64,000 nucleotides of DNA from Bacillota bacterium. Its GTDB lineage: Bacteria > Bacillota > DTU030. Each line of letters opens with the position of its first letter. Position 1 is the first letter of the stretch. Below the pieces are notes generated by a model. It was given only the letters and a program-made list of their open reading frames with translations. It did not search any database and was not told the origin of the DNA. Shown here one piece after another: positions 4,079 to 48,970 of this stretch. The stretch is from positions 8,995-72,994 of the forward strand of contig JAAYTH010000014.1 in the NCBI GenBank assembly GCA_012523785.1. The letters run 5' to 3'. The position numbers and the translations under genes were made by a program.

Positions 4079-4228
4079 GCCCCTGCGGTATTTTACCGGT
4101 ATGAAAAAAGATTACTGTGGCATACTAAAGGAGTAGAATTGGGACGGCAATTTAAGAGCAAAGCCAATGAAGCAGAAAAAGATGCATCTTGGAAGATAGC
4201 TATGTGCAAAAGGAGGCAAGTGGTCAAA

Positions 4229-4456
4229 ATGGCGGTCATCAAGGTTATTGAAATAGTGGGGGAATCCCAAACTAGTTGGCAGGATGCTGTACAAAATGCA
4301 CTGAAGGGTGCCTCAAGGACCCTCCGGGGCATTACTGGTGTGGAAATTTATAATTTGACTGCTAATGTGGACAAGGGCCAAATAGTTGAGTATAAGGCCA
4401 ATGTTAAAGTTGCTTTCCCGGTGGAAAACATTTCTTCGGTAGAACCGGATTCCTAA
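4229..4456 (+). CDS. dodecin family flavin-binding protein
   Basis: 75-aa core (MAVIKVIEIVGESQTSWQDAVQNAL...) typical of dodecins. An alternative TTG start at 4139 with an AAGGAG RBS would add a 30-aa Lys-rich extension. Confidence 0.6.
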   Translation: MAVIKVIEIVGESQTSWQDAVQNALKGASRTLRGITGVEIYNLTANVDKGQIVEYKANVKVAFPVENISSVEPDS

Positions 4457-4580: not shown

Positions 4581-4610
4581 GTATAAATTGGTTTTAGGAT
4601 AGGGATAATA
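4581..4610 (+). promoter_or_regulatory. candidate forespore sigma-G-type promoter for spoVA genes
   Basis: GTATA-N18-GATAATA compared with the sigma-G consensus GHATR-N18-CATXHTA; the spoVA operon is sigma-G dependent in B. subtilis. Confidence 0.35.
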
Positions 4611-4626: not shown

Positions 4627-5082
4627 ATGGTAATGGCTAAATTAACCCGGGAGCAGAAGGCATATAAAGAATGGGCGGATTCCCGCAAACCCCGCCCTTC
4701 CCTGGGCCGCAACATTGCTGTTGCCTTTGTCGTTGGGGGCTTGATCTGTGCCTTGGGCCAAGGTGTCTTGAATTACTTCATTTCCATCGGCATGAGTGCC
4801 AAAGAAGCCGGGGGACCGACTTCAGCTGTTATGATCCTTTTGGGTGCCCTTTTGACGGGATTGGGAATATATGACCGCATCGGAAAGTTTGCTGGTGCTG
4901 GTTCTATTGTTCCTATTACCGGTTTTGCCAATTCCATAGTTGCCCCGGCTTTGGAATATAAGCGGGAGGGTTATGTAATGGGTGTAGGGGCCAGGATGTT
5001 CCAGATTGCCGGGCCAGTCTTGGTATATGGCATGTCGACGGCCTGGCTAGTGGGTTTAATCCATTGGCTAATTCATAAGTAG
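4627..5082 (+). CDS. spoVAC: stage V sporulation protein AC
   Basis: Small membrane protein with the SpoVAC signature (VGGLICALGQG...); the start may be ATG 4633. Confidence 0.85.
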   Translation: MVMAKLTREQKAYKEWADSRKPRPSLGRNIAVAFVVGGLICALGQGVLNYFISIGMSAKEAGGPTSAVMILLGALLTGLGIYDRIGKFAGAGSIVPITGFANSIVAPALEYKREGYVMGVGARMFQIAGPVLVYGMSTAWLVGLIHWLIHK

Positions 5083-5097
5083 GGGGATAATATGTAA

Positions 5098-6123
5098 GTG
5101 GCAGAAAAAAGGCTTGGGGAAGATACCGTTCTGTTTTCCAGTTTCCCATCTATTATCGCAACGGCAACTACGGTGGGGAAAAAAGAAGGAGAGGGCCCCT
5201 GTGCTAAATATTTTGATAAGGTTGTAAGGGACCCCCTTTATGGAGAAGGCACCTGGGAGAAGGCTGAGAGCAAGTTTTTGTTGGAATCGGTTCGCAAGGC
5301 CTTAGAAAAATCCCGTTTAACCTATGACCAGATTCATTTCATGTTCAGCGGGGATCTGTTAAACCAAATTACCGCCTCTAATTTCGCCGCCCGGGAGCTA
5401 CCCATTCCTTTTTATGGCCTGTTTGGCGCCTGTTCGACCTTTACGGAGGGGTTGACCCTGGGGGGAATGGCCATTGATGGAGGCTTTGCCCAGCGGGTTT
5501 TGGTGGGGGCCTCCAGCCATTATCAGGCTGCTGAGAGGCAGTATCGTTATCCCACCGAACTAGGGATACAAAAACCCCCCACAGCCCAGCGAACAGTAAC
5601 TGGTGCCGCTGCTGTTGTATTGGGAAAGGATGGCCCCGGGCCCTTTTTGACGGCGGCCACCATCGGCCGGGTAATAGACATGGGTATTAGTGATCCCATG
5701 AATATGGGTTCAGCCATGGCACCCGCCGCTGTCCACACCATAGTACAACATTTTAAAGATACGGGCCGAAATCCAGATTATTACGATATGATTATTACCG
5801 GGGATCTGGCCAGTGTCGGCAAGGTTTTGGCTGAGGATCTAATGAAAAAAGAGGGCTATGATGTTTCCGATCGCTACACGGATTGTGGTGTCCTGATTTA
5901 CAAGCCAGATGCAGATACCTTGGCCGGTGGCAGCGGGTGTGGTTGTTCTGCCGTGGTCTTCTCTTCCTATTTTTATCCCTTGCTGCAGGAGGAATACCGG
6001 CGCCTACTCCTGGTCAGCACCGGGGCCCTCTTGAGCCCGACTACTTATCAACAGGGGGAGACAATTCCTGCTATTGCCCATGCAGTGGCAATCGAAAGGA
6101 ATTGGCCCGAAGGGGAGTGGTGA
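5098..6123 (+). CDS. spoVAD: stage V sporulation protein AD (thiolase-like fold)
   Basis: 341 aa with strong similarity to B. subtilis SpoVAD; GTG start. Confidence 0.85.
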   Translation: MAEKRLGEDTVLFSSFPSIIATATTVGKKEGEGPCAKYFDKVVRDPLYGEGTWEKAESKFLLESVRKALEKSRLTYDQIHFMFSGDLLNQITASNFAARELPIPFYGLFGACSTFTEGLTLGGMAIDGGFAQRVLVGASSHYQAAERQYRYPTELGIQKPPTAQRTVTGAAAVVLGKDGPGPFLTAATIGRVIDMGISDPMNMGSAMAPAAVHTIVQHFKDTGRNPDYYDMIITGDLASVGKVLAEDLMKKEGYDVSDRYTDCGVLIYKPDADTLAGGSGCGCSAVVFSSYFYPLLQEEYRRLLLVSTGALLSPTTYQQGETIPAIAHAVAIERNWPEGEW

Positions 6124-6124
6124 A

Positions 6125-6475
6125 ATGGATTTTGTCTACGCTTTTTTGCTCGGTGGTGCTATTTGTGCCTTGGGCCAAATACTATTGGACCTGACACCAC
6201 TGACACCAGCCCATGTCCTGGTCTTGTTTGTCTGCAGTGGTGCTGTTTTAAGCGGCTTGGGAATTTACGAAATCTTGATTGACTTTGGTGGGGCCGGTGC
6301 TACCATTCCCCTGCCGGGCTTTGGCCACACCTTGGCCAGTGGGGTTATCCAGGAAATTGAGGCCAATGGTTTTTGGGGGATTTTTAGTGGGGTTTTGGAA
6401 AACGCCAGTGTCGGCTTGGTTGCGGCTGTTGTCATTGGCCTGGTGATAAGCCTCCTTTTTAATCCCAAGGGTTAG
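6125..6475 (+). CDS. spoVAEB: stage V sporulation protein AE (SpoVAEB-type)
   Basis: SpoVAC/SpoVAEB family membrane protein; ATG is 1 nt after the spoVAD stop. Confidence 0.8.
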   Translation: MDFVYAFLLGGAICALGQILLDLTPLTPAHVLVLFVCSGAVLSGLGIYEILIDFGGAGATIPLPGFGHTLASGVIQEIEANGFWGIFSGVLENASVGLVAAVVIGLVISLLFNPKG

Positions 6476-6550
6476 GAAATAAAGCCGGATGTCATGGGGA
6501 TTAAACCGATGGGCAACTGTATAGGGCTTATAATCTTAGGGGAGGTTTAG

Positions 6551-8008
6551 ATGATAAAGCTGGCGAAAAGGCTGCAAGACAATTTGACTTATCTGCGGGA
6601 AAAAATGGGAGTGGGCGAGAGTTTTGATGTCCTTGTGCGGGAGATGGAGATAGCTGGCAAGGATGCCGCCCTGATTTTTGTCGATGGTTTTATCAAGGAT
6701 GAAGTTATGTTCATTATGAAATATCTTTTTCAGCTGCAGCGGGAGGATATTGTCCCCGCAACCATTGACAAACTATACAAAAAATGTGTCATTTATTTTG
6801 AAGTTGATCGGGTGGATACCACGGCGGAATTAATAGATAATATCCTAGCCGGACCAGTGGCTCTCCTGGTTGATGGGGAAAAAGAGGCCATCATTATCGA
6901 CGCCCGGGAATACCCGGCCCGGGGTCCGGAAGAACCCGATATCGAAAGGGTCACCAGGGGATCCCGGGATGGCTTTACCGAAACCCTGATATTTAACACA
7001 GCCCTTATCCGGCGCCGTATTCGTGATCCGGCCCTGAGGGTGGAGTTACTCCAGGTTGGCCAACGCTCTAAGACCGATATTGCTTTGGTGTATATCAAGG
7101 ATATCGCCAATCCAGGAACGGTGGATTTATTGCGGGAACGGATCAGAAAGATTGAAATTGATGGGCTGCCCATGGCGGAAAAATCAGTGGAGGAGTTTCT
7201 TACCCTGGGGACTTGGAACCCCTTCCCCCAGGTTCGCTATACCGAAAGGCCGGATGTGGCTGCAATTCACCTTTTGGAAGGCCATATATTGATTTTGACT
7301 GATACCTCCCCTAGTGCCATCATTGCCCCGGCAACCTTCTTTCATCATCTTCAGCATGCGGAGGAATTTCGACAAAATGCTGCCGTCGGTGCCTATATGC
7401 GTTGGATCCGTTATTTTGGTATACTTTTATCCTTGGTAATAACTCCCCTCTGGCTGCTTTTGGTATTACAACCAGGGCTTTTGCCCCCGGGCTGGGAATT
7501 TATCGGGCCCAAGGAGCCGACTCCAGTACCCATTTTATTGCAATTGTTTTTGGCTGAAGTAGGAGTGGATTTAGTTCGGATGGCTGCTGTACATACTCCT
7601 TCAGCCTTGGCCACCGCCCTGGGTATTATCGCCGCCTTTATGATCGGTGAGATAGCAATTTCTGTCGGGATCTTTACCGGGGAAGTGGTCCTTTACATGG
7701 CCATTGCCGCGGTGGGAACCTTTGCTACCCCCGGATATGAGTTTGCCTTTGCAATACGACTGGTGCGTTTGTTCCTTCTTTTGTCCGTTGGTTTCCTGCG
7801 CCTGCCTGGCTTATTACTTGGGCTGGCTCTCTTCTTATTTTTATTGTTGCGGACCAAATCCTTTAATGTGCCTTATTTATGGCCCTTGTTACCCTTGGAT
7901 GCCGGGGCCTTGGTGGATGTTATTTTTAGAAAACCGGTACCCTTCAAGGTAACCCGGCCGAGTATTTTACATCCACAGGATCCCGACCGGCTTCCATCGG
8001 CTGACTAG
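6551..8008 (+). CDS. spoVAF: GerA-family spore germination protein, SpoVAF-like (GerAA paralog)
   Basis: 485 aa with the GerAA-family N-terminal domain and a C-terminal membrane domain; positioned after spoVAE as spoVAF is in B. subtilis; no gerAB/gerAC partner genes. Confidence 0.7.
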   Translation: MIKLAKRLQDNLTYLREKMGVGESFDVLVREMEIAGKDAALIFVDGFIKDEVMFIMKYLFQLQREDIVPATIDKLYKKCVIYFEVDRVDTTAELIDNILAGPVALLVDGEKEAIIIDAREYPARGPEEPDIERVTRGSRDGFTETLIFNTALIRRRIRDPALRVELLQVGQRSKTDIALVYIKDIANPGTVDLLRERIRKIEIDGLPMAEKSVEEFLTLGTWNPFPQVRYTERPDVAAIHLLEGHILILTDTSPSAIIAPATFFHHLQHAEEFRQNAAVGAYMRWIRYFGILLSLVITPLWLLLVLQPGLLPPGWEFIGPKEPTPVPILLQLFLAEVGVDLVRMAAVHTPSALATALGIIAAFMIGEIAISVGIFTGEVVLYMAIAAVGTFATPGYEFAFAIRLVRLFLLLSVGFLRLPGLLLGLALFLFLLLRTKSFNVPYLWPLLPLDAGALVDVIFRKPVPFKVTRPSILHPQDPDRLPSAD

Positions 8009-8132
8009 GGTAATAAGGGGCAATTTTCTATCCCGTGAAGATGTCGTCCCTAGGGTGGCGGTGTAACCTGGCCGATTCCATTCTGCTTTGGGAGTTGGTC
8101 CCCGGGGACATTTATAGGAGGCAAATAAATAA

Positions 8133-9098
8133 GTGGGGGTATTTCTGGGTATTGATATTGGTTCAGTAAGTACCAATTTGGTCCTGGTTGATAAAGAAGG
8201 AAAAATTAAAGATTCAATTTACCTAAAAACATGTGGTGACCCTATTCGGGTTTTGCAAAAAGGTTTACAGGATCTGTCAGGACGCTGGCGGGATTCTTCC
8301 GTCGAGGGGGTGGGTGCCACCGGAAGTGGGCGCCGCCTGGCCGGGGTGATGATGGGGGCCGATGTGGTTAAAAACGAGATAACGGCCCACGCCGTCGCTG
8401 CCCTAAAGGTTGACCCCCGGGTAAAAACTGTGCTGGAAATTGGAGGTCAAGACTCGAAAATAATTCTCCTCCGCGATGGTATAGTCACTGATTTTGCCAT
8501 GAATACCGTTTGTGCTGCCGGGACCGGTTCCTTCCTTGATAGACAAGCAGCCCGCTTGGGTATACCCATTGAAAAATTTGGTGAATTGGCTTTGCAAGCG
8601 GAGCTCCCGGTGCAAATTGCCGGCAGGTGTGCTGTTTTTGCCGAATCAGATATGGTCCACAAGCAGCAGCTGGGTCACAAGATGGAAGACCTGCTGTTGG
8701 GCCTTTGCCAGGCCCTGGTGCGGAATTATTTGGCCAATGTGGCCAAGGGGAAGGATATCAAGGCCCCGATTTTATTTCAAGGGGGGGTAGCAGCTAATTT
8801 GGGGATGAAGTTATCCTTTGAAAAAGAACTGAATTTGCCCCTTAAGGTTCCACCCCACTATGATGTGATGGGAGCCTTGGGGGCCGCCCTCTTAGCCCAG
8901 CATGCGGTCCGGAAAAATGGGACCAATTTTAGAGGCTTTTCCGTAGGTGAGATGGATTACCGGGTTTCGGGATTTACATGTCCCCATTGTGCTAACCAGT
9001 GCGAGATTGTTGAAATCTATGCCGATGGTGAAGTCCAGACTTGCTGGGGCGGGCGCTGTGGTCGCTGGGAAGCTAAAAATAATTTGCAGAAAAATTGA
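8133..9098 (+). CDS. BadF/BadG/BcrA/BcrD-type ATPase (CoA-substrate-specific enzyme activase, HgdC-like) with Cys-rich C-terminal tail
   Basis: ASKHA-fold start (GIDIGSVSTN) and two Cys in CAAGTG and GRCAVF contexts that match the HgdC [4Fe-4S]-bridging cysteines; C-terminus reads CPHC-x3-C ... C-x4-C; GTG start. Confidence 0.6.
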   Translation: MGVFLGIDIGSVSTNLVLVDKEGKIKDSIYLKTCGDPIRVLQKGLQDLSGRWRDSSVEGVGATGSGRRLAGVMMGADVVKNEITAHAVAALKVDPRVKTVLEIGGQDSKIILLRDGIVTDFAMNTVCAAGTGSFLDRQAARLGIPIEKFGELALQAELPVQIAGRCAVFAESDMVHKQQLGHKMEDLLLGLCQALVRNYLANVAKGKDIKAPILFQGGVAANLGMKLSFEKELNLPLKVPPHYDVMGALGAALLAQHAVRKNGTNFRGFSVGEMDYRVSGFTCPHCANQCEIVEIYADGEVQTCWGGRCGRWEAKNNLQKN

Positions 9099-9123
9099 CA
9101 AGTTTTTGTGGTCATGGTAGAAT
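9095..9123 (+). promoter_or_regulatory. sigma-A promoter driving the lysA leader
   Basis: TTGACA-17 nt-TAGAAT with a TGn extended -10. Confidence 0.7.
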
Positions 9124-9164: not shown

Positions 9165-9375
9165 GGGGTGGGGTAGAGGCGCGGAGACTCATGAGTATCC
9201 GGTGGGAAAAGGGCATTGATGAACCCGGGAAAAGGGAGCTCCGCCGAAGTCCAGGGTCTGCTGCTGATCCTGCGGCTGGGCCTACATCAAAAAGGTGTAG
9301 GACTGTCATCGGGGTTGTTCGCCACATTCCCGATGGAGGGCTATCCCACGGCTTGGGTGGATGGGCGCGCTTAAG
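9165..9375 (+). ncRNA. lysine riboswitch (L-box) aptamer
   Basis: Conserved L-box blocks are present: AGAGGCGC, GAGUA, GGGAGCUCCGCCGAAG, ACUGUCA and GGAGGGCUAUC, with a P1-closing GGGCGCGC; lies directly upstream of lysA. Confidence 0.8.
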
Positions 9376-9468: not shown

Positions 9469-10809
9469 ATGAATTTATCTGGCACCATATGTATCAATGG
9501 CCAGGGGCATTTGGAGATTGGTAAATGTGATGTTGTTGAACTGGCCAAAACCTATGGAACCCCCCTCTATGTGCTTGACGAGGATGGGATTAGACAGAAA
9601 TGCCGGGAGTATCTAGATGCTTTTAGATCATATTATCCCCGGTACAAGGTTCTCTATGCTGGTAAGGCCTTTTCTACCATGGCGATTTTTCGCTTGGTTG
9701 AACAGGAGGGTTTGGGTATTGATGTGGTTTCCGGGGGGGAATTGTATACTGCCCTGGCAGCAAATTTCTCCCCGAAAAACATTTACTTCCATGGGAATAA
9801 CAAAAGCATGGAGGAACTTAATTTTGCCCTATCCGCCGGTGTGGGACAGATTGTGGTTGATAACCCCTATGAGTTGGAAACCCTGGCCCAATTAGTGGAG
9901 GGAAGAAAAAAGAGGGTTGATATTCTTTTACGCCTGACCCCCGGGATTGAAACCCACACCCATCACTATATCCAAACCGGGCAGCTTGATTCCAAGTTCG
10001 GTATTTCCTTGGCTGGGGGGGCTGCCCTGGCTGCTGTAAAACAGGCTTTAAAATATCGGCGCTTAAAACTGAGGGGAATTCACTGCCACATTGGTTCCCA
10101 AGTGCACAATTCTGAATCCTTTGCCCTGGCAGCCCGGCGGATGGTTGAGTTCTTGGCCCAGATCCGGGAGGAAACCGGTCGGCAATTGCCGGAGCTAAAT
10201 CTCGGTGGTGGCTTGGGTATAGCCTACGCCAAGGAGGATAATCCAGAGCCTATTGCTCTTTATATCCGGCGGATTACCGAAGCTGTTAAGGCGGCTTGTT
10301 CTGAGGAGGACATTAACCTGCCCACATTGGTAGTTGAACCAGGACGTTCTTTGGTCGGCGAAGCGGGGGTTGCTATTTATAGAGTTGGAGCCATCAAAGA
10401 AATAGAGGGCATTAGAATCTATGTTTCTGTAGATGGGGGTATGGCTGACAATCCCCGTCCGGCCCTTTATGATGCTAAATATAAGGCAATCTTGGCCAAC
10501 AAGGCGGCAAGGTCTCCCGTACAAAAATATACCATTGCCGGCAAATGCTGTGAATCCGGGGATATACTCATCAAAGATGCTCACCTACCCCCGGTTGAAG
10601 CCGGTGATTTAATTGCTGTACCATCCAGTGGTGCCTACCAATATGCCATGGCCAGCAACTATAACAGATTGCCCCGGCCGGCGGTAGTAATGGCTTCCCA
10701 GGGCCGGGCTGAAGTTATTATTCGCCGGGAAACATATAACGATCTGGTGCGTTATGATCGTATTCCCTCCAGCTGGGGGGAGAAGGAATCCCTCTCTTTA
10801 GTAATGTAA
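9469..10809 (+). CDS. lysA: diaminopimelate decarboxylase
   Basis: 446 aa, PLP fold-III decarboxylase with clear LysA similarity. Confidence 0.9.
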   Translation: MNLSGTICINGQGHLEIGKCDVVELAKTYGTPLYVLDEDGIRQKCREYLDAFRSYYPRYKVLYAGKAFSTMAIFRLVEQEGLGIDVVSGGELYTALAANFSPKNIYFHGNNKSMEELNFALSAGVGQIVVDNPYELETLAQLVEGRKKRVDILLRLTPGIETHTHHYIQTGQLDSKFGISLAGGAALAAVKQALKYRRLKLRGIHCHIGSQVHNSESFALAARRMVEFLAQIREETGRQLPELNLGGGLGIAYAKEDNPEPIALYIRRITEAVKAACSEEDINLPTLVVEPGRSLVGEAGVAIYRVGAIKEIEGIRIYVSVDGGMADNPRPALYDAKYKAILANKAARSPVQKYTIAGKCCESGDILIKDAHLPPVEAGDLIAVPSSGAYQYAMASNYNRLPRPAVVMASQGRAEVIIRRETYNDLVRYDRIPSSWGEKESLSLVM

Positions 10810-13971: not shown

Positions 13972-14610
13972 GTGTTCTACTTGTTGATGCTTGGCTTTGT
14001 TTTGTTCTTTCTTCTTTTATTGTGCCTTCCCCTGCGGATAAAAGTCACCTATCACTACCATGCCGGTGGATCCAAACTAAGTTTTTGTTTGCAGGTGCTG
14101 GGGGCTAGTTTTCACCTAGAACCTGGAAAGCGTTATCCCATAAAGACTAGGGACCGACGGGAGGATAGACGGGAAAAGCCGATAAATTTGGCTACATTTA
14201 TATGTACCTGGAAAAAATGGAAGGGATATATAAAGCTGGTGCTGCCCCCTTTGAAACGGTTTTTTTCCCGAAGCAAAATAGATATTAGCCAATTGTGCTT
14301 GAAGGTTGGCACCGGGAATGCGGCAGAGACGGGGATTATTGTAGGTCTGCTCTGGGGTGGCATAGGACTGATAGGCCCCCTTCTATTTCCCCGGGTCAAG
14401 TTTGCACCCCGGATAACACCTGTATACAATCGTCAGGTTCTTAATATATATTTCAGCGGTATATTGGAAGTAGGTCTGGTACATATTATTACTGTGGTGG
14501 TGGGCATGCTTATGTCATTATTGGGGGAAAAATATTCCCGGAAGGGAGAGGAGTTTAGTGGCGGAACATCCAATCCGGGGCTTAATGCAAACTGCCCTGG
14601 AAAGTATTAA
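13972..14610 (+). CDS. ytfI: sporulation membrane protein, YtfI-like (DUF2953)
   Basis: N-terminal TM segment and pairing with ytfJ as in B. subtilis; identification rests mainly on synteny. Confidence 0.45.
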   Translation: MFYLLMLGFVLFFLLLLCLPLRIKVTYHYHAGGSKLSFCLQVLGASFHLEPGKRYPIKTRDRREDRREKPINLATFICTWKKWKGYIKLVLPPLKRFFSRSKIDISQLCLKVGTGNAAETGIIVGLLWGGIGLIGPLLFPRVKFAPRITPVYNRQVLNIYFSGILEVGLVHIITVVVGMLMSLLGEKYSRKGEEFSGGTSNPGLNANCPGKY

Positions 14611-14992
14611 GGAGATGGTTGATGTCAACACCATTGTCGGTGATGCTGTAGAAACGCCCGACGGTAGTGTTGTTATTCCAATTTCCCGGGTTAGTTTTGG
14701 TTTTGCTTCTGGTGGGGGGGATTGTGGGGGAAGTGTTGATGATAATCAAAAAGATCCCCTCCCCTTTGCCGGGGGCAGTGGGGCCGGAGTGTCTATACAG
14801 CCAGTTGCTTTTCTAGTGGTGGGGCGGGGTCAGGTAAGGCTATTACCCGTCGACAGCAGGGCTATGTATGACCGACTTATTGACTTGGCTCCCCAAGTGC
14901 TGAAACAATTGGGCCTTGTGGTCGACAAAGAAGGCGGCAAAGTAGGAGATGAATTTGGGCCGCCTCCTCCAGATTACCAACCTTGGGAGTGA
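14558..14992 (+). CDS. ytfJ: sporulation protein YtfJ/GerW
   Basis: YtfJ signature (DVNTIVGD...VIPISRVSFGFASGGG); GTG start, 53-nt out-of-frame overlap with the upstream gene. Confidence 0.7.
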   Translation: MAEHPIRGLMQTALESIKEMVDVNTIVGDAVETPDGSVVIPISRVSFGFASGGGDCGGSVDDNQKDPLPFAGGSGAGVSIQPVAFLVVGRGQVRLLPVDSRAMYDRLIDLAPQVLKQLGLVVDKEGGKVGDEFGPPPPDYQPWE

Positions 14993-25329: not shown

Positions 25330-27549
25330 TTGAATTTTGTGGAGATTAGAATTGCTCAACACAGCGGTTTCTGCTATGGTGTAAGGAGGGCCCTGGACCA
25401 AACGGAAAAAGCTGTTCAAAATGGGGAAGGACCTGTTTACACCTGGGGTCCCCTAATTCACAACCCTAGGGTCGTAGCAGACTTGGAAAACAAAGGGGTT
25501 GTTTCCCTAAAGAAATTGACCGGGGTTCCACCGGGGAAACTCATCATACGTGCCCACGGAGCACCACCAGAGGTTTATACACAGGCCCAAGAGCGGGGGT
25601 TCACAATTATTGATGCAACCTGCCCCTCAGTACGAAAATGCCAAAGGATAGCAGCGGATTTGGCCCGGGCCGGGAAAGAGATTGTTGTTGTTGGTCGACG
25701 GGATCACCCCGAAGTCATAGGCATCTGTGGCTGGTCGGGGGACAAGGCTATAGTAATAAGGGATCCCGTTGAAGGACAGGCCCTAACCTTCACTAAACCG
25801 GTGGGGGTTTTGGCCCAGACCACCCAGGAGGAAAAAAACTTCCAAGAAGTTGTTAAGATTTTGCAGAAAAGGGCACCGGAATTGGAAGTTTTCCCAACTA
25901 TCTGTGCAGCCACCCGTTCTAGGCAAGAGGCGGCCCTAGAGTTGGCGGAGGACGTAGATGTAATGCTTGTAATTGGTGCCCAAACCAGTGCCAACACCGG
26001 GGAACTGGCCAGATTATGCCGGCAAACAGGTGTTCAAACATATCAGATTGAATCTGCAGCCCAACTGCGCCGGGAGTGGCTGCAAAACAAAGACAGGATC
26101 GGGGTTATTGCTGGAGCTTCAACTCCCGACGTCACCATCGAGGAGGTAATAAGGGTTATGACGGAATTTCAACGGTCAGAAGGAGAAAACATTGAGGACA
26201 TGTACGCCAGTACATTGCGGACACTTGAAGAGGGGGATATCATTTCCGGAAAGGTTGTCCGCATCGATACTGATGAGGTTTTAGTGGACATTGGTTATAA
26301 ATCAGAAGGGGTTCTCCCCTTACAGGAACTCACCGATAAAACAATTTCTTCCCCGGAAGATATTGTGGCGGTGGGTGATGAGATCGATGTCTATGTCATG
26401 AAGGTGGAAAATAGTGAGGGGAACCCACTTCTTTCCAAAAAGCGGGCCGATTATGAAGGTGCCTGGGTTGACTTACAAGAGGCTTATGGAACTGCCGAAC
26501 CCATCGAAGGGGAAGTGTTGCAGGTAGTTAAGGGTGGGTTAATTATTTTTGTGGGCCTGCGTGCCTTTTTGCCGGCCTCCCAGGTGGGATTGCGCTATGA
26601 ACCAAACCTGGAAAAATATGTCGGCCAAACATTGCGGGTAAGGGTCATCGAATTGGAACGGGCCCGCAATAAGGTGATTGTATCGCAAAAAGTAGTGTTG
26701 GAGGAGGAGCTGGCCGAAAAACGCGCCGCCCTATGGGAAGACTTACTTGAAAACCAAGTGCGGCAGGGCAGAGTAACTAAACTTACCGATTTTGGGGCCT
26801 TTGTCGATTTGGGTGGTATCGAAGGCCTGGTCCATATTTCTGAACTTTCCTGGGCGCGGGTAAAACACCCGTCGGAAGTAGTCCAAGAGGGAGAAGATAT
26901 CGAGGTTATGGTTTTGGGTATCGACCGGGAAAGGGAAAGGATTTCCCTGGGTTTAAAACAAGTCCTACCCGATCCCTGGGAAGGGGTAGGGGAAAAATAC
27001 CCGGTGGATTCGATACAAAGGGGAACTGTTACCCACATCGTCGGCTTTGGGGCCTTCGTCCAGCTGGAACCTGGCGTTGAAGGCCTGGTGCACATTTCCC
27101 AATTAGCAAACTACCGGGTTGCAGAAGCCAGTGATGTGGTAGAGGTTGGGCAGAAGGTAAATGTCAAAATTCTTAATGTGAATGAGGCTGATAGGCGCAT
27201 CAGTTTAAGCATTCGGGAAGTTGACCAGGATATTGAAGAGGATGAATATCTGGAACAGGTGGAAGAAGAGCCCACCGGTGGAATTGTGATTGGCGAGGTG
27301 CTGGGGGAACTTTTGGAAGAAAAAAAGGCGGAAGAGGCTGAAGCCGAAAAAATAGAGGAAGCTGAAAAAGCCGAAACTGGGGAAGTAAAGGAAGCTGAAG
27401 AAGCAGAAACTGATGAAACAGAGGAAGCCGAAGACGCTGAAACTGATGAAACAGAGGAAGTTGAAGAAGTCGGAACTGAAGAAACAGAGGAAGCCGGGGA
27501 AACAGAAGAAAATGAAACAGAGGAAGAAGCCGAGGATGATGAAGAGTAA
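25330..27549 (+). CDS. ispH: fusion protein: 4-hydroxy-3-methylbut-2-enyl diphosphate reductase (IspH/LytB) + ribosomal protein S1 (four S1 domains) + acidic repeat tail
   Basis: N-terminal ~280 aa is IspH (FCYGVRRAL), followed by four S1 domains and a ~80-aa Glu/Thr/Ala-rich tail; TTG start. Confidence 0.85.
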   Translation: MNFVEIRIAQHSGFCYGVRRALDQTEKAVQNGEGPVYTWGPLIHNPRVVADLENKGVVSLKKLTGVPPGKLIIRAHGAPPEVYTQAQERGFTIIDATCPSVRKCQRIAADLARAGKEIVVVGRRDHPEVIGICGWSGDKAIVIRDPVEGQALTFTKPVGVLAQTTQEEKNFQEVVKILQKRAPELEVFPTICAATRSRQEAALELAEDVDVMLVIGAQTSANTGELARLCRQTGVQTYQIESAAQLRREWLQNKDRIGVIAGASTPDVTIEEVIRVMTEFQRSEGENIEDMYASTLRTLEEGDIISGKVVRIDTDEVLVDIGYKSEGVLPLQELTDKTISSPEDIVAVGDEIDVYVMKVENSEGNPLLSKKRADYEGAWVDLQEAYGTAEPIEGEVLQVVKGGLIIFVGLRAFLPASQVGLRYEPNLEKYVGQTLRVRVIELERARNKVIVSQKVVLEEELAEKRAALWEDLLENQVRQGRVTKLTDFGAFVDLGGIEGLVHISELSWARVKHPSEVVQEGEDIEVMVLGIDRERERISLGLKQVLPDPWEGVGEKYPVDSIQRGTVTHIVGFGAFVQLEPGVEGLVHISQLANYRVAEASDVVEVGQKVNVKILNVNEADRRISLSIREVDQDIEEDEYLEQVEEEPTGGIVIGEVLGELLEEKKAEEAEAEKIEEAEKAETGEVKEAEEAETDETEEAEDAETDETEEVEEVGTEETEEAGETEENETEEEAEDDEE
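27340..27549 (+). repeat. imperfect tandem ~27-nt coding repeats encoding the acidic tail
   Basis: Repeated units of the form gaaac(t/a)gatgaaacagaggaagccgaag; they produce spurious ORFs on both strands. Confidence 0.6.
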
Positions 27550-28612
27550 TCACTCCCTCCGATCTAACCGCAAGTTAGATCACATTCGTCACGCCCTGGA
27601 TCTGCCCCCTGGTCCCGGGACCACGGGGTTTGAGGATATCCATCTTCTGCATCGCTGCCTACCCGAATTAGCCTGGGAAGAGGTTGAATTATCAACCTCT
27701 TTTCTCGGCCTTTCCTTGTCTGCACCCTTAATCATAAATGCCCTGACCGGTGGAGCCCGGGATGTAACGGATATTAATGCTTCCCTGGCCCGGGTTGCTG
27801 CAGAGATGGGAATTGGCCTAGCTGTAGGCTCCCAAAGGGCAGCCCTGGAGGATCCCGGCCTGGAAGATACTTACCGGGTGGTCCGTCGGGAGAACCCCCA
27901 AGGCGTAATTTTGGCCAATGTCGGTGCCCATACTGCTCCCGCTGATGCCTGCCGGGCGGTAGAAATGATTGATGCTGATCTGTTGCAAGTACACTTAAAC
28001 CCGGCCCAGGAATTGGTGATGCCGGAAGGGGAGCGAGATTTTCGGGGATTGCTCGCTAATATTGGGGATATAATTGCTACTGTTAAAGTGCCGGTAATTG
28101 TAAAGGAAGTCGGGTTCGGCATGGCCCCCCAAGATAGCCTGGCCTTGGTCCAAGCCGGTTGCAAAGGTATTGACATTGGCGGTAAAGGGGGCACAAACTT
28201 TATTGCCATCGAGGAGGCCCGCCGCAGGGATACCTGTGGGCAAGGCTTGCTTGAATGGGGAATTCCCACTGGAATAAGCCTGCTGGAAACAATAAATATA
28301 CTCCAGGGGCAAAATGTTGTTGTTATTGCCTCCGGGGGTATAAAAACCAGTACAGATATAGCCAAATGCCTGGCATTGGGGGCCGGGGCAGTTGGTATTG
28401 CCGGTCGGTTTTTACATATTCTTATAAAAAAAGGGGAGGAGGAGCTCAAAGGGGCCATCAAGGTTCTTAAACAGGAGTTGAAAATGCTCCTCATCTTGAC
28501 TGGGACGGCGACACCGGCGGCCATGAAAAATATCCCGCTAGTAATAACGGGCCGAACCGCCGCTTGGCTTCGGGCCCGGGGAATTTCAGTAGAAACCTTT
28601 GCCTCCCGCTAG
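27536..28612 (+). CDS. fni: isopentenyl-diphosphate delta-isomerase, type 2 (FMN-dependent)
   Basis: Strong similarity to B. subtilis Fni (LDHIRHAL...INALTGG); ATG overlaps the ispH-rpsA stop. Confidence 0.8.
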   Translation: MMKSNHSLRSNRKLDHIRHALDLPPGPGTTGFEDIHLLHRCLPELAWEEVELSTSFLGLSLSAPLIINALTGGARDVTDINASLARVAAEMGIGLAVGSQRAALEDPGLEDTYRVVRRENPQGVILANVGAHTAPADACRAVEMIDADLLQVHLNPAQELVMPEGERDFRGLLANIGDIIATVKVPVIVKEVGFGMAPQDSLALVQAGCKGIDIGGKGGTNFIAIEEARRRDTCGQGLLEWGIPTGISLLETINILQGQNVVVIASGGIKTSTDIAKCLALGAGAVGIAGRFLHILIKKGEEELKGAIKVLKQELKMLLILTGTATPAAMKNIPLVITGRTAAWLRARGISVETFASR

Positions 28613-39199: not shown

Positions 39200-40312
39200 T
39201 TGCCCCACAAGGTTATACACTTATTAAGTATTGCCGCCGGGGGAATCTACCGCCATGTTTTTGATCTTAGCCAGGGGTTAGACCGGGGGGTGTTTTCCCC
39301 GGTCGTGGTGGCCTCACGGTATAATACTTGGTTAGATAAGCCCCCCGGGCGGGGTGTTAAGGTTATTCCCCTTGATATCTGCCGGCGGGAGAATCCCCTG
39401 TTGCCGACGGGGGATTTGCTAAAATTAATATATTTTTTTCAGGAGGAAAAAATAAAGATACTGCATGTACACGGTTTTCGGGCTGCCTTCTGGGGTAGAG
39501 TGGCCGCCCGGCTGGCCGGGGTACCAGTTGTTATTTACACCGTACATAATTTTCCTGTCAATAGGGCCGCCATTGTATATGGCATCGAAGGATTATTAGC
39601 TAATTGGACTACCCATATAATTACGGTATCTGGTGCCTTGCAGGGGAAACTTATCCAGCGGGGTATTCCTTCCGGGAAGGTGACAACTATCCACAATGGT
39701 GTTAAGGCGGCAGAGGTACCGGAGGCTATTATTAAAACTAAAACCAGACGGTATTATAACATCGGCACTGTTGGCCGCCTGGTAGAATTAAAGGGTATTG
39801 AGTATTTTCTCCGGGCGGCTGCCACCGTGGCTGCTGTTGAACCCCGGGCCAGGTTCTATGTTATTGGCGATGGTCCCCGACGAAGCCGCCTGCAGGTCCT
39901 GGCCCATAAGCTGTCTTTAGACGGTGTGGTGTTTTTTACTGGCCATGTGGATAATATGGATAGGTGGTGGCAGGGCCTGGACGTTCTAGTTTCTTGTTCC
40001 CTCCAGGAAGGACTGGGTTTAAGTATTTTGGAAGCAATGGCGGCTTCTATTCCGGTCGTCGGCACCCGGGTGGGGGGGATACCAGAGCTTATTACCAATG
40101 GACTAAATGGTGTTTTGGTTAGACCGAGGGATAGTCAGGCCCTGGCCACTGCAATTTTAGATCTGCTCTTTAATCGCGACTGGAGAACCAGCTTGGGTAG
40201 AAGGGGCAGGGAAAAGGTTTTGGAAAAATTCACCTTGGAGAAAATGGTTACGGCTGTGGAAGGGATCTATCACCAATCATTGCAGAATCTAGGAAGTAAA
40301 GTGAATGAGTAG
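39200..40312 (+). CDS. glycosyltransferase family 4 (GT-B, retaining)
   Basis: GT4 C-terminal motif region (E-x7-E) and an N-terminal Rossmann half; TTG start. Confidence 0.75.
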   Translation: MPHKVIHLLSIAAGGIYRHVFDLSQGLDRGVFSPVVVASRYNTWLDKPPGRGVKVIPLDICRRENPLLPTGDLLKLIYFFQEEKIKILHVHGFRAAFWGRVAARLAGVPVVIYTVHNFPVNRAAIVYGIEGLLANWTTHIITVSGALQGKLIQRGIPSGKVTTIHNGVKAAEVPEAIIKTKTRRYYNIGTVGRLVELKGIEYFLRAAATVAAVEPRARFYVIGDGPRRSRLQVLAHKLSLDGVVFFTGHVDNMDRWWQGLDVLVSCSLQEGLGLSILEAMAASIPVVGTRVGGIPELITNGLNGVLVRPRDSQALATAILDLLFNRDWRTSLGRRGREKVLEKFTLEKMVTAVEGIYHQSLQNLGSKVNE

Positions 40313-42491
40313 ACGGTTATCTTTTATACTTATTGTAATTGGCCTTCTGTGCCTGATGGGCTTTTGGCAGCCGGGGTCGATCAATGCTGCTGGTAGAGAT
40401 AAGAGGGTGATAGTTTTTGTTCTAGATTCCATTAGTATAACGGATTTGTGTGCGGCTATGACCCCTACTATTGATATGCTTATTGATGTGGGTGCCATGG
40501 GTCTAATGAATACAAGCACCTACTCAGGCTCGGCCCGAAATGCTGCCCACTTAACAATAGGGGCGGGGGCCCGGGCCAGTGGTGGTGATGGCCTGGAACC
40601 GGCCTTGGAAATTGGAGAGGAGTGGGGGGGGATCCCGGCGGGGGAGGTATACCGTAACCGGATGGGGCTGATACCCGGGGGTAATATTGTTCACTTGGGC
40701 ATGGCTGAGATTATCGCTGGCAATAGTGGCCTGGCGGCGACGGTTTTACCCGGCGCCCTGGGGCAGACCCTTGCCGATGCTGGCTATACAAGCAGTTTGC
40801 TGGGTAATAGTGATGTTCCCGGTATGCCAAGGCGCCCGGCGGCGGGTATAGTAATTGACTTCACCGGTGTGGTAAAAGATGGTGCTATCGGATCGGATCT
40901 TTTGGGGGAAAATGCCACAGCCCCCTATGGTTTGGAAACGAACATTAATTCTTTACTGGGGGCCCTACATAAAACAACGGATAGTTCTTTACTGGTAATA
41001 GAGTGGGGGGATACCGCCCGGGTTGATGGTTATAGTAGATATTTGCTCCCGGAAGTGGCCGTTGCAGCCCGGCGTCGGGCCGTAGAAAGGGCTGATGAGT
41101 TTCTGGGGGAATTATTAAAAGGCTTGGATCTGGAAGAAACACTACTTTTACTCCTTACCCCCTCACCGGCGATAGGTGGTTATCAAAAAGGAGAACGATT
41201 GACACCAATAATAATGGCCGGGGCGGGTACTGGCACCGGTCTATTATCATCACCCACAACCCGGCGGGCTGGGCTGGTGGCCAACGTAGATGTTGCCCCC
41301 ACCATTATCCGCTTTTTCCAACTAGCTCCACCCTCTACTATGATGGGTAGACCGATGAAGATTGTCCCGGGAGATAATGCACCTGAAACCCTTTCTGCCC
41401 TGGGAGATATTTTCCAAAGGAATTTTGCCTTCCGGCCTATCGTGATCAGGACTTATATTATCTTCATTATTGCAGTTCTTGCCGGTACTACCGGGGCCAT
41501 CTACCGGCCGGGGAGATGGAATTCCCTTGGAGCCCAACTCCTAATTGCTGTTGCTGCTGTTCCCTTGATACTGCTGCTGCTCCCCCTACTAGCACTAAGA
41601 AAGTTGGATATTACACTGTTGGTAATAGCTATTACTACATTTTTGCTGGTTAAACTGGTCTACCGGAAAAAAAACAACCCCCAGCCCTTTATTGTTTTGG
41701 GTCTACTTACCGTGGGCTTGCTGTGGTTGGATTTAGTTTTGGGCCAATCCTTATTGCTTAAATCCCTTTTGGGGTACTGTCCCATCAGCGGTGCCCGCTA
41801 CTATGGAATGGGGAATGAATACATGGGCCTGTATCTGGGGGCGGGATTAATTGGCTGGAGTGGGTTGGCGGGGGAGATAAATACCGCTGGCAGGCGGATA
41901 AATCCTTTTTTTATTGTCCTGCCCGGTTATTTATTCTTGTTACTGTTTATAGCCTCTCCCCGCCTGGGGGCCAATTTTGGAGGCACAATTGCCACCATGT
42001 GGGGGGGTGGTACTACTATCATTTGCTTACAAAAACAAAGGGCACGAAGGAGGCAATTGCTTATTTGGGTTCTGGGGGGAGTGCTGTTATTGATAGCCCT
42101 TGGATGGGGGGATTATTCTTTGGCTGGTGATGGGGCATCACACCTGGGGCGAACAATTGGCCTAATTATTGGGGCTGGCCCCCGGGAGTTGCTGTTAATA
42201 ATTCAACGTAAAGTGGGAATGAACCTGAAACTGTTAAAATATTCTTGGTGGAGTTTGGTAATATTGGCTGTACTGATCCTTTTTATTCTACTCTCCTATC
42301 GCCCCCCCCGTCTTTTAAAGGATTTAGCCCGAGAATTCCCCGCCCTATGGGCAGGTTTTATCGGCAGTGGGATAGGGGCCTTTGTGGCATTTTTAGTGAA
42401 TGATTCCGGGGTCGTTGCCGGGGCAACAGTCTTGATTTTTCCTGTGACTACACTTTTGTTTTTACTGCTGCAGGCCGGGGGCAAAACCTAG
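40305..42491 (+). CDS. large membrane protein: signal peptide + ~330-aa extracytoplasmic domain + ~10 TM C-terminal domain; function unknown
   Basis: 728 aa; ATG overlaps the GT4 stop (translational coupling). The N-domain has a VFVLDSISITD motif that weakly resembles the alkaline-phosphatase-superfamily metal site. Confidence 0.5.
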   Translation: MSRRLSFILIVIGLLCLMGFWQPGSINAAGRDKRVIVFVLDSISITDLCAAMTPTIDMLIDVGAMGLMNTSTYSGSARNAAHLTIGAGARASGGDGLEPALEIGEEWGGIPAGEVYRNRMGLIPGGNIVHLGMAEIIAGNSGLAATVLPGALGQTLADAGYTSSLLGNSDVPGMPRRPAAGIVIDFTGVVKDGAIGSDLLGENATAPYGLETNINSLLGALHKTTDSSLLVIEWGDTARVDGYSRYLLPEVAVAARRRAVERADEFLGELLKGLDLEETLLLLLTPSPAIGGYQKGERLTPIIMAGAGTGTGLLSSPTTRRAGLVANVDVAPTIIRFFQLAPPSTMMGRPMKIVPGDNAPETLSALGDIFQRNFAFRPIVIRTYIIFIIAVLAGTTGAIYRPGRWNSLGAQLLIAVAAVPLILLLLPLLALRKLDITLLVIAITTFLLVKLVYRKKNNPQPFIVLGLLTVGLLWLDLVLGQSLLLKSLLGYCPISGARYYGMGNEYMGLYLGAGLIGWSGLAGEINTAGRRINPFFIVLPGYLFLLLFIASPRLGANFGGTIATMWGGGTTIICLQKQRARRRQLLIWVLGGVLLLIALGWGDYSLAGDGASHLGRTIGLIIGAGPRELLLIIQRKVGMNLKLLKYSWWSLVILAVLILFILLSYRPPRLLKDLAREFPALWAGFIGSGIGAFVAFLVNDSGVVAGATVLIFPVTTLLFLLLQAGGKT

Positions 42492-42698: not shown

Positions 42699-43766
42699 AT
42701 GAATAGAAGTAGAGACTTATTGCGGGAATTAACTGCTGCAGCGGGCGTATCGGGATTTGAGGGTGAGGTGAGGCGGATAATGCGGGAACGATTGGCCCCC
42801 CTGGCCCACATTGAGCTGGATCGCTTGGGGTGCATCATTGCCCAAAAAACCGGTGATAGGGAAAACCCCACAGTAATGCTGGCTGCCCACATGGACGAAA
42901 TAGGTTTTATGGTAAAGGCTATTACTGCGGATGGTTTTTTACGCTTTACCCCCTTGGGTGGCTGGCCGGAACAGGTCCTTTTGGCCCAAAGGGTCATCAT
43001 AAAAGGTAGGAATGGCGATGTACCTGGTGTCATTGGTTCTAAACCGCCCCATCTGATGGACCGGGAAGAGCGGAAAAAGATGGTGAAAATTAAGGATATG
43101 TTTATTGATGTGGGGGCCAAGGATAGGAAGGAAGTTGACTCTTTTGGGATTAGACCCGGGGATCCGATTGTCCCGGTGGAGAGTTGGGAGGCAATGAAAA
43201 ACGAAAAATTTATAATGGCCAAAGCTATAGATGATCGGGCGGGCTGTGGCCTTTTGATAGAGGTATGTGAAAAATTAAAGGACAATGATCATCCCAACAC
43301 TCTTTATGCCGTCGGTACGGTCCAGGAGGAGGTTGGCACCAGGGGGGCGGCGACCAGTGTGGCAGTAATTGATCCTGATGTTGCTTTGGTTTTGGATGTC
43401 AGTATTGCCACAGATGTACCTGGTTTGAAGGAAGAGGTTGAGGGAAAACTGGGTCAGGGGCCTACCATCGGCTTATACGATTCCTCCATGATACCGAATA
43501 TTAAGTTGCGGGATCTTTGTATACAGACAGCGAAGGAGTATAATATTCCCTATCAATATTCTATTATGGAGGGTGGCGGTACTGATGGGGGCAGAATACA
43601 CCTTCATGGTACCGGGGTCCCCAGCCTGGTTATTGGTGTCCCAGTTCGCTATATCCATAGCCATGTGGGTATTATGCACCTCGACGATTACCTGTGGGCC
43701 CGCCAGCTCTTGGTTGAATTGATAAAAAAATTAGATACTGAGACTACAAAAAATCTAATAAAGTAA
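42699..43766 (+). CDS. M42 family (TET/FrvX/YsdC-type) aminopeptidase, paralog 1
   Basis: M42 signature (LAAHMDEIGF, DDRAGC, EEVGTRGA). Confidence 0.8.
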   Translation: MNRSRDLLRELTAAAGVSGFEGEVRRIMRERLAPLAHIELDRLGCIIAQKTGDRENPTVMLAAHMDEIGFMVKAITADGFLRFTPLGGWPEQVLLAQRVIIKGRNGDVPGVIGSKPPHLMDREERKKMVKIKDMFIDVGAKDRKEVDSFGIRPGDPIVPVESWEAMKNEKFIMAKAIDDRAGCGLLIEVCEKLKDNDHPNTLYAVGTVQEEVGTRGAATSVAVIDPDVALVLDVSIATDVPGLKEEVEGKLGQGPTIGLYDSSMIPNIKLRDLCIQTAKEYNIPYQYSIMEGGGTDGGRIHLHGTGVPSLVIGVPVRYIHSHVGIMHLDDYLWARQLLVELIKKLDTETTKNLIK

Positions 43767-47972: not shown

Positions 47973-48970
47973 TGAAAAACATATTGCAACGGCTAATATA
48001 TGCCTTCGGACCCTCGGGAAAGGAGGAGGAGATCCGTTCAGTTTTGAAAGAAGAACTGGCTGTTACAGGCCTGCAACTAAAGACCGATGCCCTGGGGAAT
48101 TTGATTGCTACCAAGCCGGGACAGGGTGGGCGCCTTATGTTGGCAGCCCATATGGATGAGATCGGTCTTTTAGTAACCCATATAGATGATAAGGGTTTCC
48201 TTCGCTTTGCCCCCATTGGGGGCCAGGACCCCAGGAATCTCCTCGGCTCCCGGGTGGTATTTGCCGATGGGACCATGGGCACAATTGGTGCTGAAACAAT
48301 CAAGGAAGCTAAAGACCTAAAGATAGACAAACTTTTTCTTGATATAGGTGCTGCCACCAGCGCCCAAGCCGAAGAAATAGTTCAAATTGGTTCCCCGGCG
48401 GTCTTTGCTCCTCATTTTAGCCATCAGGGGGATCGAATTATCGGTAAATCCCTTGATAACAGGGCCGGTTGTGCACTATTGCTGGCAGTCATCAGGGATC
48501 TGCCCCCGGTTGACTACCACCTGGATTTTGTTTTTACGGTGCAAGAAGAAGTGGGTCTACGGGGTGCCCGAACGGCGGCCTATCATCTTCATCCGGATCT
48601 GGCCTTGGCTGTGGATGTAACGCGAACCGGGGATACTCCTGAATCACCGCCTATGGCGGTTGAATTGGGTAAGGGACCTGCTATAAAAATTAAGGACACT
48701 TCCCTCATCAGCCATCCCCGGGTCCGGGACCTGTTAAAGGAGACTGCCCACTCCAGGGGAATTCCCTTCCAATTGGAAGTTCTTGCCCGGGGGGGCACTG
48801 ATGCCGGGTCCATTCATTTGAGCCGGGAAGGTGTTCCCAGTGGCGTCATTTCAATTCCCACCCGTTATGTGCACAGCCCGGCAGAGGTAATAGATTATCG
48901 GGACTTAACAAATGCTGCCAGCCTCTTATCTGCCTTTATGCAGCAGGAGCAATTATTTCCAGATTTATAA
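47972..48970 (+). CDS. M42 family aminopeptidase, paralog 4
   Basis: LAAHMDEIGLLV, DNRAGC, QEEVGLRGA; 1-nt stop/start overlap with the upstream gene. Confidence 0.8.
   Translation: MKNILQRLIYAFGPSGKEEEIRSVLKEELAVTGLQLKTDALGNLIATKPGQGGRLMLAAHMDEIGLLVTHIDDKGFLRFAPIGGQDPRNLLGSRVVFADGTMGTIGAETIKEAKDLKIDKLFLDIGAATSAQAEEIVQIGSPAVFAPHFSHQGDRIIGKSLDNRAGCALLLAVIRDLPPVDYHLDFVFTVQEEVGLRGARTAAYHLHPDLALAVDVTRTGDTPESPPMAVELGKGPAIKIKDTSLISHPRVRDLLKETAHSRGIPFQLEVLARGGTDAGSIHLSREGVPSGVISIPTRYVHSPAEVIDYRDLTNAASLLSAFMQQEQLFPDL

Follow-up and report, generated by a model that had tools for sequence, protein, structure and literature searches.

A spoVA-linked archerase-type activase is the probable electron-injecting component of a split, three-gene counterpart of PlsA/Ger-type enzymes

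The nearest described class to the system reported here comprises PlsA/PlsR (Clostridium perfringens CPE1194/1195, with a single-gene PlsA in Enterococcus and Lactococcus) and Ger (Thermotoga maritima Tmari_0479). A 'BBD' core, consisting of two tandem activase domains plus DUF2229, has been described for Ger and PlsA (PMC13159169), PlsA/PlsR have been divided into Act1, Act2, Red1 and Red2 of the BCR/HAD family (PMC12838417), and, among DUF2229 enzymes, lipid ester reductases alone have been characterised (PMC13159169, PMC12838417, PMC8788747). Here, we characterise a gene encoding a single activase in a 64,000-nucleotide stretch of a Bacillota bacterium genome (GTDB lineage DTU030; assembly GCA_012523785.1, contig JAAYTH010000014.1, positions 8,995 to 72,994 of the forward strand), hereafter the window. 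The gene lies between sporulation genes and lysA, and an earlier reading of the letters without database searches (the sequence-only reading) had presented it as an orphan. Our analysis points instead to one component of a three-protein enzyme, whose other two genes, coding for the paralogous DUF2229 proteins DUFa and DUFb, adjoin the activase gene at most loci of the family and appear to have been relocated in the lineage of the window.

The coding sequence of the activase (positions 8133–9098 of the window; plus strand, as are all window features below unless stated otherwise) opens with a GTG start codon at a position common to orthologues and encodes 321 aa plus a stop; an AGGAGG ribosome-binding site, read from the sequence, lies 9 nt 5' of the start (8118–8123). 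Residues 5–255 (8145–8897) form an ASKHA ATPase domain of the BcrAD_BadFG/TIGR00241 type, assigned by Pfam and NCBIfam models as well as by AlphaFold and Foldseek. PF01869 matched this region with E = 2e−47 and 162 bits (cut-off 31.5), and TIGR00241 matched with 185 bits (curated cut-off 125). An AlphaFold model built from 96 homologues (predicted local distance difference test score, pLDDT, 90.4) gave target-normalised template modelling (TM) scores of 0.82–0.93 in Foldseek comparisons with the best solved relatives, MbdQ (9gai_D), HgdC (1hux), HadI (4eht) and DCCP-R (7yyl_E), the first three of these scoring 0.87–0.93. Judged by sequence and predicted fold, the product of 8133–9098 is a BcrAD/BadFG-HgdC-type archerase, an Fe-S ATPase.

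None of the solved systems corresponds fully to the family of the window protein. MbdQ (9gai) is the best match in the Protein Data Bank (PDB) by both sequence (E = 4e−39, 35% identity) and structure, but MbdQ/MbdP, BcrA/D and BzdQ/P are heterodimer pairs, whereas the window family has a single activase gene and no BcrBC- or MbdON-type genes. HgdC and HadI share with the window protein the ASKHA fold, the ATP-binding motifs, the positions of two ligand cysteines and target-normalised TM scores of about 0.9; they are, however, only 30–32% identical to it and lack the 60-residue Cys4 domain of the window protein, whose family pairs with DUF2229 proteins rather than with HgdAB or HadBC, in no CoA-transferase context. 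DCCP-R/DCCP (7yyl, 6eno) also couples a separate activase to a HAD-like partner of unassigned physiological substrate, but the activase is 29% identical, and the match between DUFb and DCCP is marginal (E = 0.03).

Two cysteines of the ATPase domain, Cys127 in NTVCAAGTG (codon 8511–8513) and Cys166 in GRCAVFAES (codon 8628–8630), fall, in a gap-free alignment, on residues 127 and 166 of the HgdC chain in 1hux, the ligands of its inter-subunit [4Fe-4S] cluster. Both are invariant among the 96 homologues and are the predicted inter-subunit cluster ligands of the window protein. Residues 266–312 (8928–9068) follow as a C-terminal Cys4 mini-domain (CPHCANQC...CWGGRC; Cys codons at 8979, 8988, 9000 and 9057), predicted to fold as a three-stranded beta unit with strands at residues 276–282, 291–297 and 300–305 (pLDDT about 85 within the complete model, 80 for the tail modelled alone). 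The invariant cysteines of this tail are C283, C286, C290 and C309 only, in the pattern CxxCxxxC-x18-C; F266, G268, N288, E291, G306 and W312 are also invariant, while C304 (codon 9042) is replaced by Arg in most homologues. The sequence-only reading had called the gene an HgdC/BcrAD-type activase with two HgdC-like cluster cysteines and an additional Cys-rich tail. The first two statements are confirmed by the model matches, the fold and the 1hux alignment; the third holds in that the tail is real and conserved, although the fifth Cys counted in it is not.

A profile of the tail, searched against 1.84 billion cluster representatives, returned 539 matches, which placed it at the C-terminus of ~320-aa activases, in ~740-aa activases containing inteins, in one DUFb-activase fusion, and at residues ~560–654 of proteins of 1358–1463 aa, directly after the second BcrAD_BadFG domain and before DUF2229. 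As a family feature, this Cys4 junction module is defined in the present analysis and does not come from the literature. Because the tail sits at the activase-DUF2229 junction of the fused enzymes, its position suggests a docking or relay module. A second [4Fe-4S] cluster is a reasonable hypothesis for its metal, with structural Zn as the alternative; the tail weakly resembles the N-terminal [4Fe-4S] domain of molybdenum/tungsten-bis-pyranopterin guanine dinucleotide (Mo/W-bisPGD) enzymes (NapA, ArrA, formate dehydrogenase and NuoG). In the intein-bearing activases (P0139, P0147 and P0207, ~740 aa), a LAGLIDADG-type intein lies inside the ATPase domain, and matches to Pfam Intein_splicing and LAGLIDADG_3 interrupt the BcrAD_BadFG match. 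Inteins usually reside in highly conserved, important proteins.

We then examined how the family is distributed and what adjoins it. A protein search returned thousands of ~320-aa homologues that are 59–67% identical over 96–100% of the query, tail included, and that come from Bacillota, Actinomycetota, Halanaerobiales and other groups. In a species-level scan with one genome per species (80 loci, typed by tblastn and purpose-built profile hidden Markov models, HMMs), DUFa and/or DUFb adjoined the activase gene at 62 loci; at 10 the activase was by itself, flanked on each side by 3 kb or more, and the remaining 8 were cut by contig ends. A further 80 metagenome loci anchored on DUFb mostly had the order DUFa-DUFb-ACT (ACT, activase), and no HgdAB- or HadBC-type dehydratase genes (full-length PF06050) were found beside about 150 related loci. 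Directly 3' of spoVA genes lie at least 20 of the 62 operons, with lysA next in 15; among the genera concerned are Desulfofundulus, Pelotomaculum, Desulfotruncus, Desulfotomaculum, Moorella, Desulfosporosinus, Desulfitobacterium, Desulfovirgula, Fervidicola, Thermovorax and Orenia, joined by a metagenome-assembled genome (MAG) of the Halobacteroidaceae. The order in Desulfoscipio gibsoniae is spoVAF - DUF2229 (331 aa) - DUF2229 (365 aa) - activase - (PALP) - lysA, and Desulfofundulus, Pelotomaculum and others carry the DUF2229 pair in the same slot between spoVAF and lysA. Caloranaerobacter has the same three genes in another genomic context.

The window itself reads spoIIAA-spoIIAB-sigF, spoVAC/D/E, a GerA-type spoVAF, the activase, a lysine riboswitch and lysA, a gene order already recognised in the sequence-only reading. 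No partner gene of DUF2229, HGD-D or Bcr type was found anywhere in its 64 kb by tblastn, the DUFa/DUFb HMMs and Pfam scans of most open reading frames (ORFs) of at least 300 aa, which extends to the whole window the earlier statement that none lies within 10 kb.

The reverse arrangement also occurs. At four loci (L095, L112, L119 and L127) DUFa and DUFb have no activase within ~9–10 kb, so that, given the activase-only loci, the system can be split in both directions. These four were rejected as partner loci of the window's clade, their tetranucleotide correlation with the window being at most 0.78. One of them, L095 (7957–11529; ERZ773359 NODE_285), shows this syntenic slot broken the other way round: where spoVAF would stand there is a 492-aa ORF, followed by DUFa-DUFb and then directly by an 876-aa ORF and ORFs similar to the M50 peptidase and TrpS of the window, with neither activase nor lysA within ~10 kb. 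Other activase-only loci with flanks of at least 3 kb are L014, L029, L041 and L045 (Actinomycetota), L027 and L068 (Sporomusa), L042 and L071; the activases of these unrelated loci are 59–64% identical to that of the window.

Both DUFa (~323 aa) and DUFb (~372 aa) are matched by PF09989, with a weak further match to the C-terminal end of PF06050 (HGD-D). For DUFa, DUFb and the fused BBD proteins, NCBIfam offers no model other than that of the generic activase domain, and single-sequence search found no solved relatives of either DUF2229 protein. The best PDB matches of the DUFb profile, DCCP (7yyl_C, 6eno) and HadC (3o3m_B), are marginal (E 0.03–0.13) and cover a conserved Cys...TRxEAF segment, ~65 residues long in the case of DCCP. 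Each of the two proteins has three invariant cysteines; three-Cys clusters are typical of HAD-type enzymes. These features place DUFa and DUFb in the HAD superfamily weakly.

In a comparison with the fused enzymes, residues 3–315 of the window activase align with 48% identity to residues 333–650 of the 1416-aa protein P0257, that is, to its second activase domain plus tail with the four cysteines kept, while the first activase domain, which is without a tail, is 45% identical. DUFa aligns to residues 687–997 (29%) and DUFb to residues 1029–1400 (24%) of the same protein, the order in the fused proteins being Act1-Act2-tail-DUF2229-DUF2229. The window activase is by comparison a single 321-aa domain protein with no fused second activase or DUF2229. 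Because the modules correspond one to one while the gene order differs, the trio can be described as a split, single-activase counterpart of the PlsA/Ger class, with which it shares the BcrAD_BadFG activase, the Cys4 junction, DUF2229 and a second DUF2229/HGD-D-like domain, P0257 serving as a comparator matched to that class by architecture. It differs in having three genes and one activase, presumably a homodimer, where PlsA/PlsR and Ger have two fused activase domains, and, in the lineage of the window, in having the activase and the catalytic pair at separate loci.

On this basis, we consider it highly probable that the activase is the ATP-dependent electron-injecting subunit of a three-protein BCR/HAD-superfamily enzyme whose catalytic pair is DUFa/DUFb. 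If the activase works like HgdC, HadI and PlsA, its homodimer would bridge one [4Fe-4S] cluster through C127 and C166; this cluster would be reduced by ferredoxin or flavodoxin, and ATP binding and hydrolysis would drive a low-potential electron to Fe-S centres of DUFa/DUFb, which in turn may reduce or dehydrate a carbonyl or ester substrate by ketyl-radical-type chemistry. The Cys4 mini-domain would bind a metal, either a [4Fe-4S] cluster as in Mo-bisPGD enzymes or structural Zn, and dock or relay towards DUFa. As to the substrate, a glycerolipid acyl ester, as for plasmalogen and ether-lipid synthases, is our leading guess by analogy, and a tentative one.

A refinement of this explanation would make the trio a split plasmalogen/ether-lipid synthase, equivalent to PlsA/PlsR or Ger, which turns sn-1 acyl esters into vinyl or alkyl ethers in the forespore membrane. 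The module-for-module match to proteins of PlsA/Ger architecture, the shared tail module and the ester-reductase activity of the characterised DUF2229 enzymes all favour such a role. The catalytic subunits are, however, only 24–29% identical to the fused form, which makes any transfer of the substrate from the fused enzymes weak; the activases form a tight clade of their own, at least 59% identical internally versus 48% to the fused type, and P0257 is itself tied to PlsA/Ger by architecture only. We therefore regard the synthase role as possible but, on balance, doubtful.

We next considered where the partners of the window activase might be encoded. The exact window activase was also found in ERZ778607 and ERZ925066 (biogas/digester), GCA_040436515.1 and GCA_040364275.1, and its relatives at 99, 90, 84, 77–78 and 71% identity (L171, L004-6, L010-13 and L008/9, including MAG AS23ysBPME_30, 'Clostridia bacterium DTU030', GCA_050945395.1 and GCA_050951765.1) all show the order spoVAF-ACT-(L-box)-lysA without DUF2229 genes. 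Within this activase-only clade the ratio of non-synonymous to synonymous substitution rates (dN/dS) of the activase is 0.06–0.09 (~0.15 for the tail only), with synonymous sites near saturation, and the divergence rate of the gene equals that of its neighbours spoVAD, sigF and trpS. This strong purifying selection and the matching divergence indicate that the activase is functional. The nearest lineages with a full operon are L033 and L179, and since the latter keeps the trio in an order near that of the window (sigF-dodecin-spoVAC/D/E-DUFa-DUFb-ACT-M50-trpS-scpAB-...), the ancestor would have had all three genes at the window position.

A protein search with the L033 DUFb as query recovered three related DUFb clades, one of which (clade C; P0285/86/87/90/91/95) always occurs in DUFa-DUFb loci without an activase, in the order ftsE-ftsX-M23 peptidase-ctpB-414-aa membrane protein-DUFa-DUFb. 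Three of its members can be connected with the clade of the window. P0286 lies on contig JBMNSW010000112.1 of MAG GCA_050945395.1, whose activase-only locus is on JBMNSW010000002.1; P0290 lies on NODE_661 of ERZ2647830 at a coverage of 4.67, the activase with 84% identity being on NODE_82 of that assembly at 4.34; and P0291 comes from GCA_040364275.1, an assembly holding the exact window activase. Tetranucleotide correlations between clade C contigs and window-clade loci are 0.91–0.95, and window-clade loci are the top matches of these contigs, outside clade C, among the fetched loci of at least 5 kb. DUFb identities among the three lineages are 82, 74 and 72%, and activase identities to the window are 84% and 77%. 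The relocated DUFa and DUFb keep all positions with at least 95% conservation except for one D-to-E exchange in DUFb, and the pair adjoins the sporulation gene ctpB. We conclude, at the level of MAGs and assemblies rather than of a closed genome, that the partner pair was probably relocated and not lost in the clade of the window, and that the activase looks orphaned because this lineage moved both partner genes elsewhere.

The 414-aa multi-pass membrane protein is always found between ctpB and DUFa (L184 7609–8853, L185 2–1111, L186 2029–3273); it has no Pfam match on record, and its C-terminal part appears PDZ-like by eye. It is probably a separate unit, since a sigma-F-type promoter comes after it.

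A true orphan, in which the DUF2229 partners have been lost and the ATPase serves another acceptor in the forespore, would account for the absence of partners from the 64-kb window and from the 17–21-kb loci of its relatives, for the stability of the activase-only arrangement under purifying selection across a clade diverged to 71% identity, and for the activase-only loci of Sporomusa and Actinomycetota. It is nevertheless very unlikely, given a DUFa-DUFb pair without activase in the same MAG and in the same assemblies at matching coverage and composition, the parallel divergence of DUFb and activase, the reciprocal DUFa-DUFb-only loci, and the retention by the activase of a Cys4 junction module specific to DUF2229-linked activases. 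The description of the activase as stand-alone in the sequence-only reading thus does not survive the neighbourhood comparison, in which a DUF2229 pair accompanies the family; the search for partners elsewhere in the genome, which that reading had proposed, produced this pair in the same MAG and assemblies, with no HgdAB- or Bcr-type genes beside the activase loci. Its proposal of an unrecognised activation step fails as well, in that the activase is homologous to the second activase domain and linker of proteins with PlsA/Ger architecture and hence belongs to an enzyme class that is already defined.

It is scarcely tenable that the protein activates a classical 2-hydroxyacyl-CoA dehydratase (HgdAB, HadBC, FldBC or LcdAB), or serves as ATPase of a class I benzoyl-CoA reductase, encoded elsewhere. 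Its best solved relatives, MbdQ, HgdC and HadI (30–35% identity), and public annotations such as '2-hydroxyglutaryl-CoA dehydratase' point in this direction, but the NCBIfam equivalog models for BcrA, BcrD and BzdQ, the ATPase subunits of class I benzoyl-CoA reductases, scored far below their cut-offs (BcrA, TIGR02259, 105 versus 578; BcrD, TIGR02261, 66 versus 313; BzdQ, TIGR03192, 77 versus 380). Moreover, the neighbours of the family are DUF2229 pairs and not full-length HGD-D genes, Bcr subunits or CoA-transferases, identity is higher (45–48%) to the activase domains of fused DUF2229 proteins, and the Cys4 tail lies beyond the alignments to HgdC, HadI and MbdQ, which end near residues 259–263 (263–266 columns in Foldseek). 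That the activase is a decaying remnant of a broken operon, as the local loss of two upstream genes relative to D. gibsoniae and the sister lineage L179 might suggest, is effectively refuted by a dN/dS of ~0.08, an ORF intact in every clade member, the retention of all catalytic, ATP-binding and Cys residues, and a divergence matching that of spoVAD, sigF and trpS.

The position of the three-gene system behind spoVA led us to consider its expression, using the forespore promoter patterns GYATA-N14-16-GGnRAnAnT for sigma-F and GHATR-N17-18-CATxHTA for sigma-G. In the window, the co-oriented spoVAC, spoVAD, spoVAEB and GerA-type spoVAF (4627–8008; spoVAF 6551–8008) form a probable shared transcription unit upstream of the activase. 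The gap between spoVAF and the activase (8009–8132), about 125 nt long in the window and 30 nt in the relative L009, contains neither a promoter match nor a terminator-like hairpin, and the activase is probably transcribed by read-through from the spoVA operon. A sigma-G-type match, GTATG-N17-CATACTA (4099–4127), lies upstream of the dodecin and spoVA genes, and a near-consensus sigma-G-type element recognised in the sequence, GTATA-N18-GATAATA (4581–4610), just 5' of spoVAC after a hairpin and T-run. The downstream boundary is set by a separate sigma-70-type promoter of lysA, TTGACA-17-TAGAAT (9095–9123), followed by the lysine riboswitch (L-box; 9166–9351, 109 bits) and lysA (9469–10809).

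Upstream of the relocated DUFa, a block, CTGTATAG-GA-GG...GGGyAATATTCA, is kept in all clade members while its flanks have diverged; it reads as the sigma-F-type GTATA-N15-GGnRAnAnT, 61–70 nt before the start codon, and the expected frequency of this pattern is 0.0006 per 150 nt. Among 131 distinct DUFa upstream regions, 10 have a perfect sigma-G-type match, 9 of them 46–73 nt before the start (the 10 are found in D. gibsoniae, Desulfotruncus arcticus and Anaerovirgula multivorans, among others), and 6 have a sigma-F-type match. Background rates, taken over all 1766 upstream regions with the DUFa matches, dacF and ytfJ included, are 1.8% (sigma-G type) and 0.6% (sigma-F type). As positive controls, the sigma-G pattern recovers the upstream regions of ytfJ and dacF in many related loci. 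These matches support, without proving, forespore expression in several lineages. For the lineage of the window, forespore-specific expression of the activase from the spoVA operon and of DUFa-DUFb from the conserved sigma-F-type promoter seems slightly more likely than not. The sporulation link raised by the sequence-only reading is accordingly plausible, and on firmer ground than that reading could establish, through spoVA synteny in many genera and forespore-type promoters, although no promoter match lies directly 5' of the activase itself.

The boldest version of this explanation is a forespore-specific, split PlsA-like radical reductase with a second, Mo-bisPGD-like [4Fe-4S] domain on its single activase, encoded by an ancestral part of the spoVA-lysA neighbourhood of anaerobic endospore-formers. 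Such an enzyme would alter some component of the forespore, and the conversion of acyl esters of the inner membrane to vinyl or alkyl ethers is one example. We consider it unlikely as a whole.

Several points weigh against a three-protein, sporulation-linked enzyme of the PlsA/Ger class as reconstructed here. Our literature search found no paper on the split three-gene family; one study of selenium metabolism does mention an activase, but at a different locus. DUFa and DUFb are distant from the fused enzymes, at the identities given above. The likeness of the tail to the [4Fe-4S] domain of molybdopterin enzymes is weak, with structural similarity below significance and no confirmation from sequence profiles. 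The assignment of the DUFa-DUFb contigs to the species of the window is a matter of co-assembly, matched coverage, composition and parallel divergence, and MAG binning can err; the tetranucleotide similarity, 0.915, is slightly below the range within the window itself (0.937–0.972 among quarters). Perfect forespore-promoter matches occur upstream of only ~12% of DUFa genes. Finally, the family is also present in genomes or MAGs of Actinomycetota, Haloplasma, Sumerlaeota and Syntrophobacteria, at loci that show no sporulation genes, so the chemistry cannot be spore-specific.

Several other features of the window were recorded alongside the activase. A small dodecin-family gene (4139–4456) between sigF and spoVAC occupies the same slot in L004, L008, L010, L001 and L179. 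A perfect sigma-G-type match, GTATA-N18-CATATTA (14459–14488), lies upstream of a Spore_YtfJ gene (14558–14992). At 25330–27549, a 739-aa protein fuses LytB/IspH to four S1 RNA-binding repeats; an ORF at 27413–28612, similar to FMN-dependent dehydrogenases, overlaps it as called, and its true start is probably later. A 728-aa ORF (40305–42491), 3' of a GT4 glycosyltransferase gene, has no Pfam match at E ≤ 1e−5. It is followed by four paralogous M42 glutamyl-aminopeptidase genes (42699–43766 and 45895–48970), three in tandem and one apart, with a D-Ala-D-Ala ligase gene (44806–45846) in the gap between them. Towards the end of the window, a 649-aa protein (61653–63602) begins with a nitroreductase-family domain and also carries a long TPR array, and its gene is followed by a minus-strand tRNA gene cluster (63695–64000).

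Relative to the literature found, the split three-gene form of the PlsA/Ger class, its Cys4 junction domain and its repeated embedding between spoVA and lysA are new. The false lead of an orphan activase is removed, and in its place stands a concrete target, a highly conserved three-component Fe-S enzyme for which we found no functional study, whose Cys4 junction domain may be an extra cluster absent from the HgdC/HadI activators. If the forespore-specific radical reductase outlined above, improbable in its full form, were true, sporulation would include a widely conserved function that has so far escaped recognition and whose genes can be divided between two loci under forespore control. The recurrent location of the system after spoVA, together with promoters of forespore type, suggests that spore formation in anaerobes includes a reductive step for which B. 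subtilis has no equivalent.

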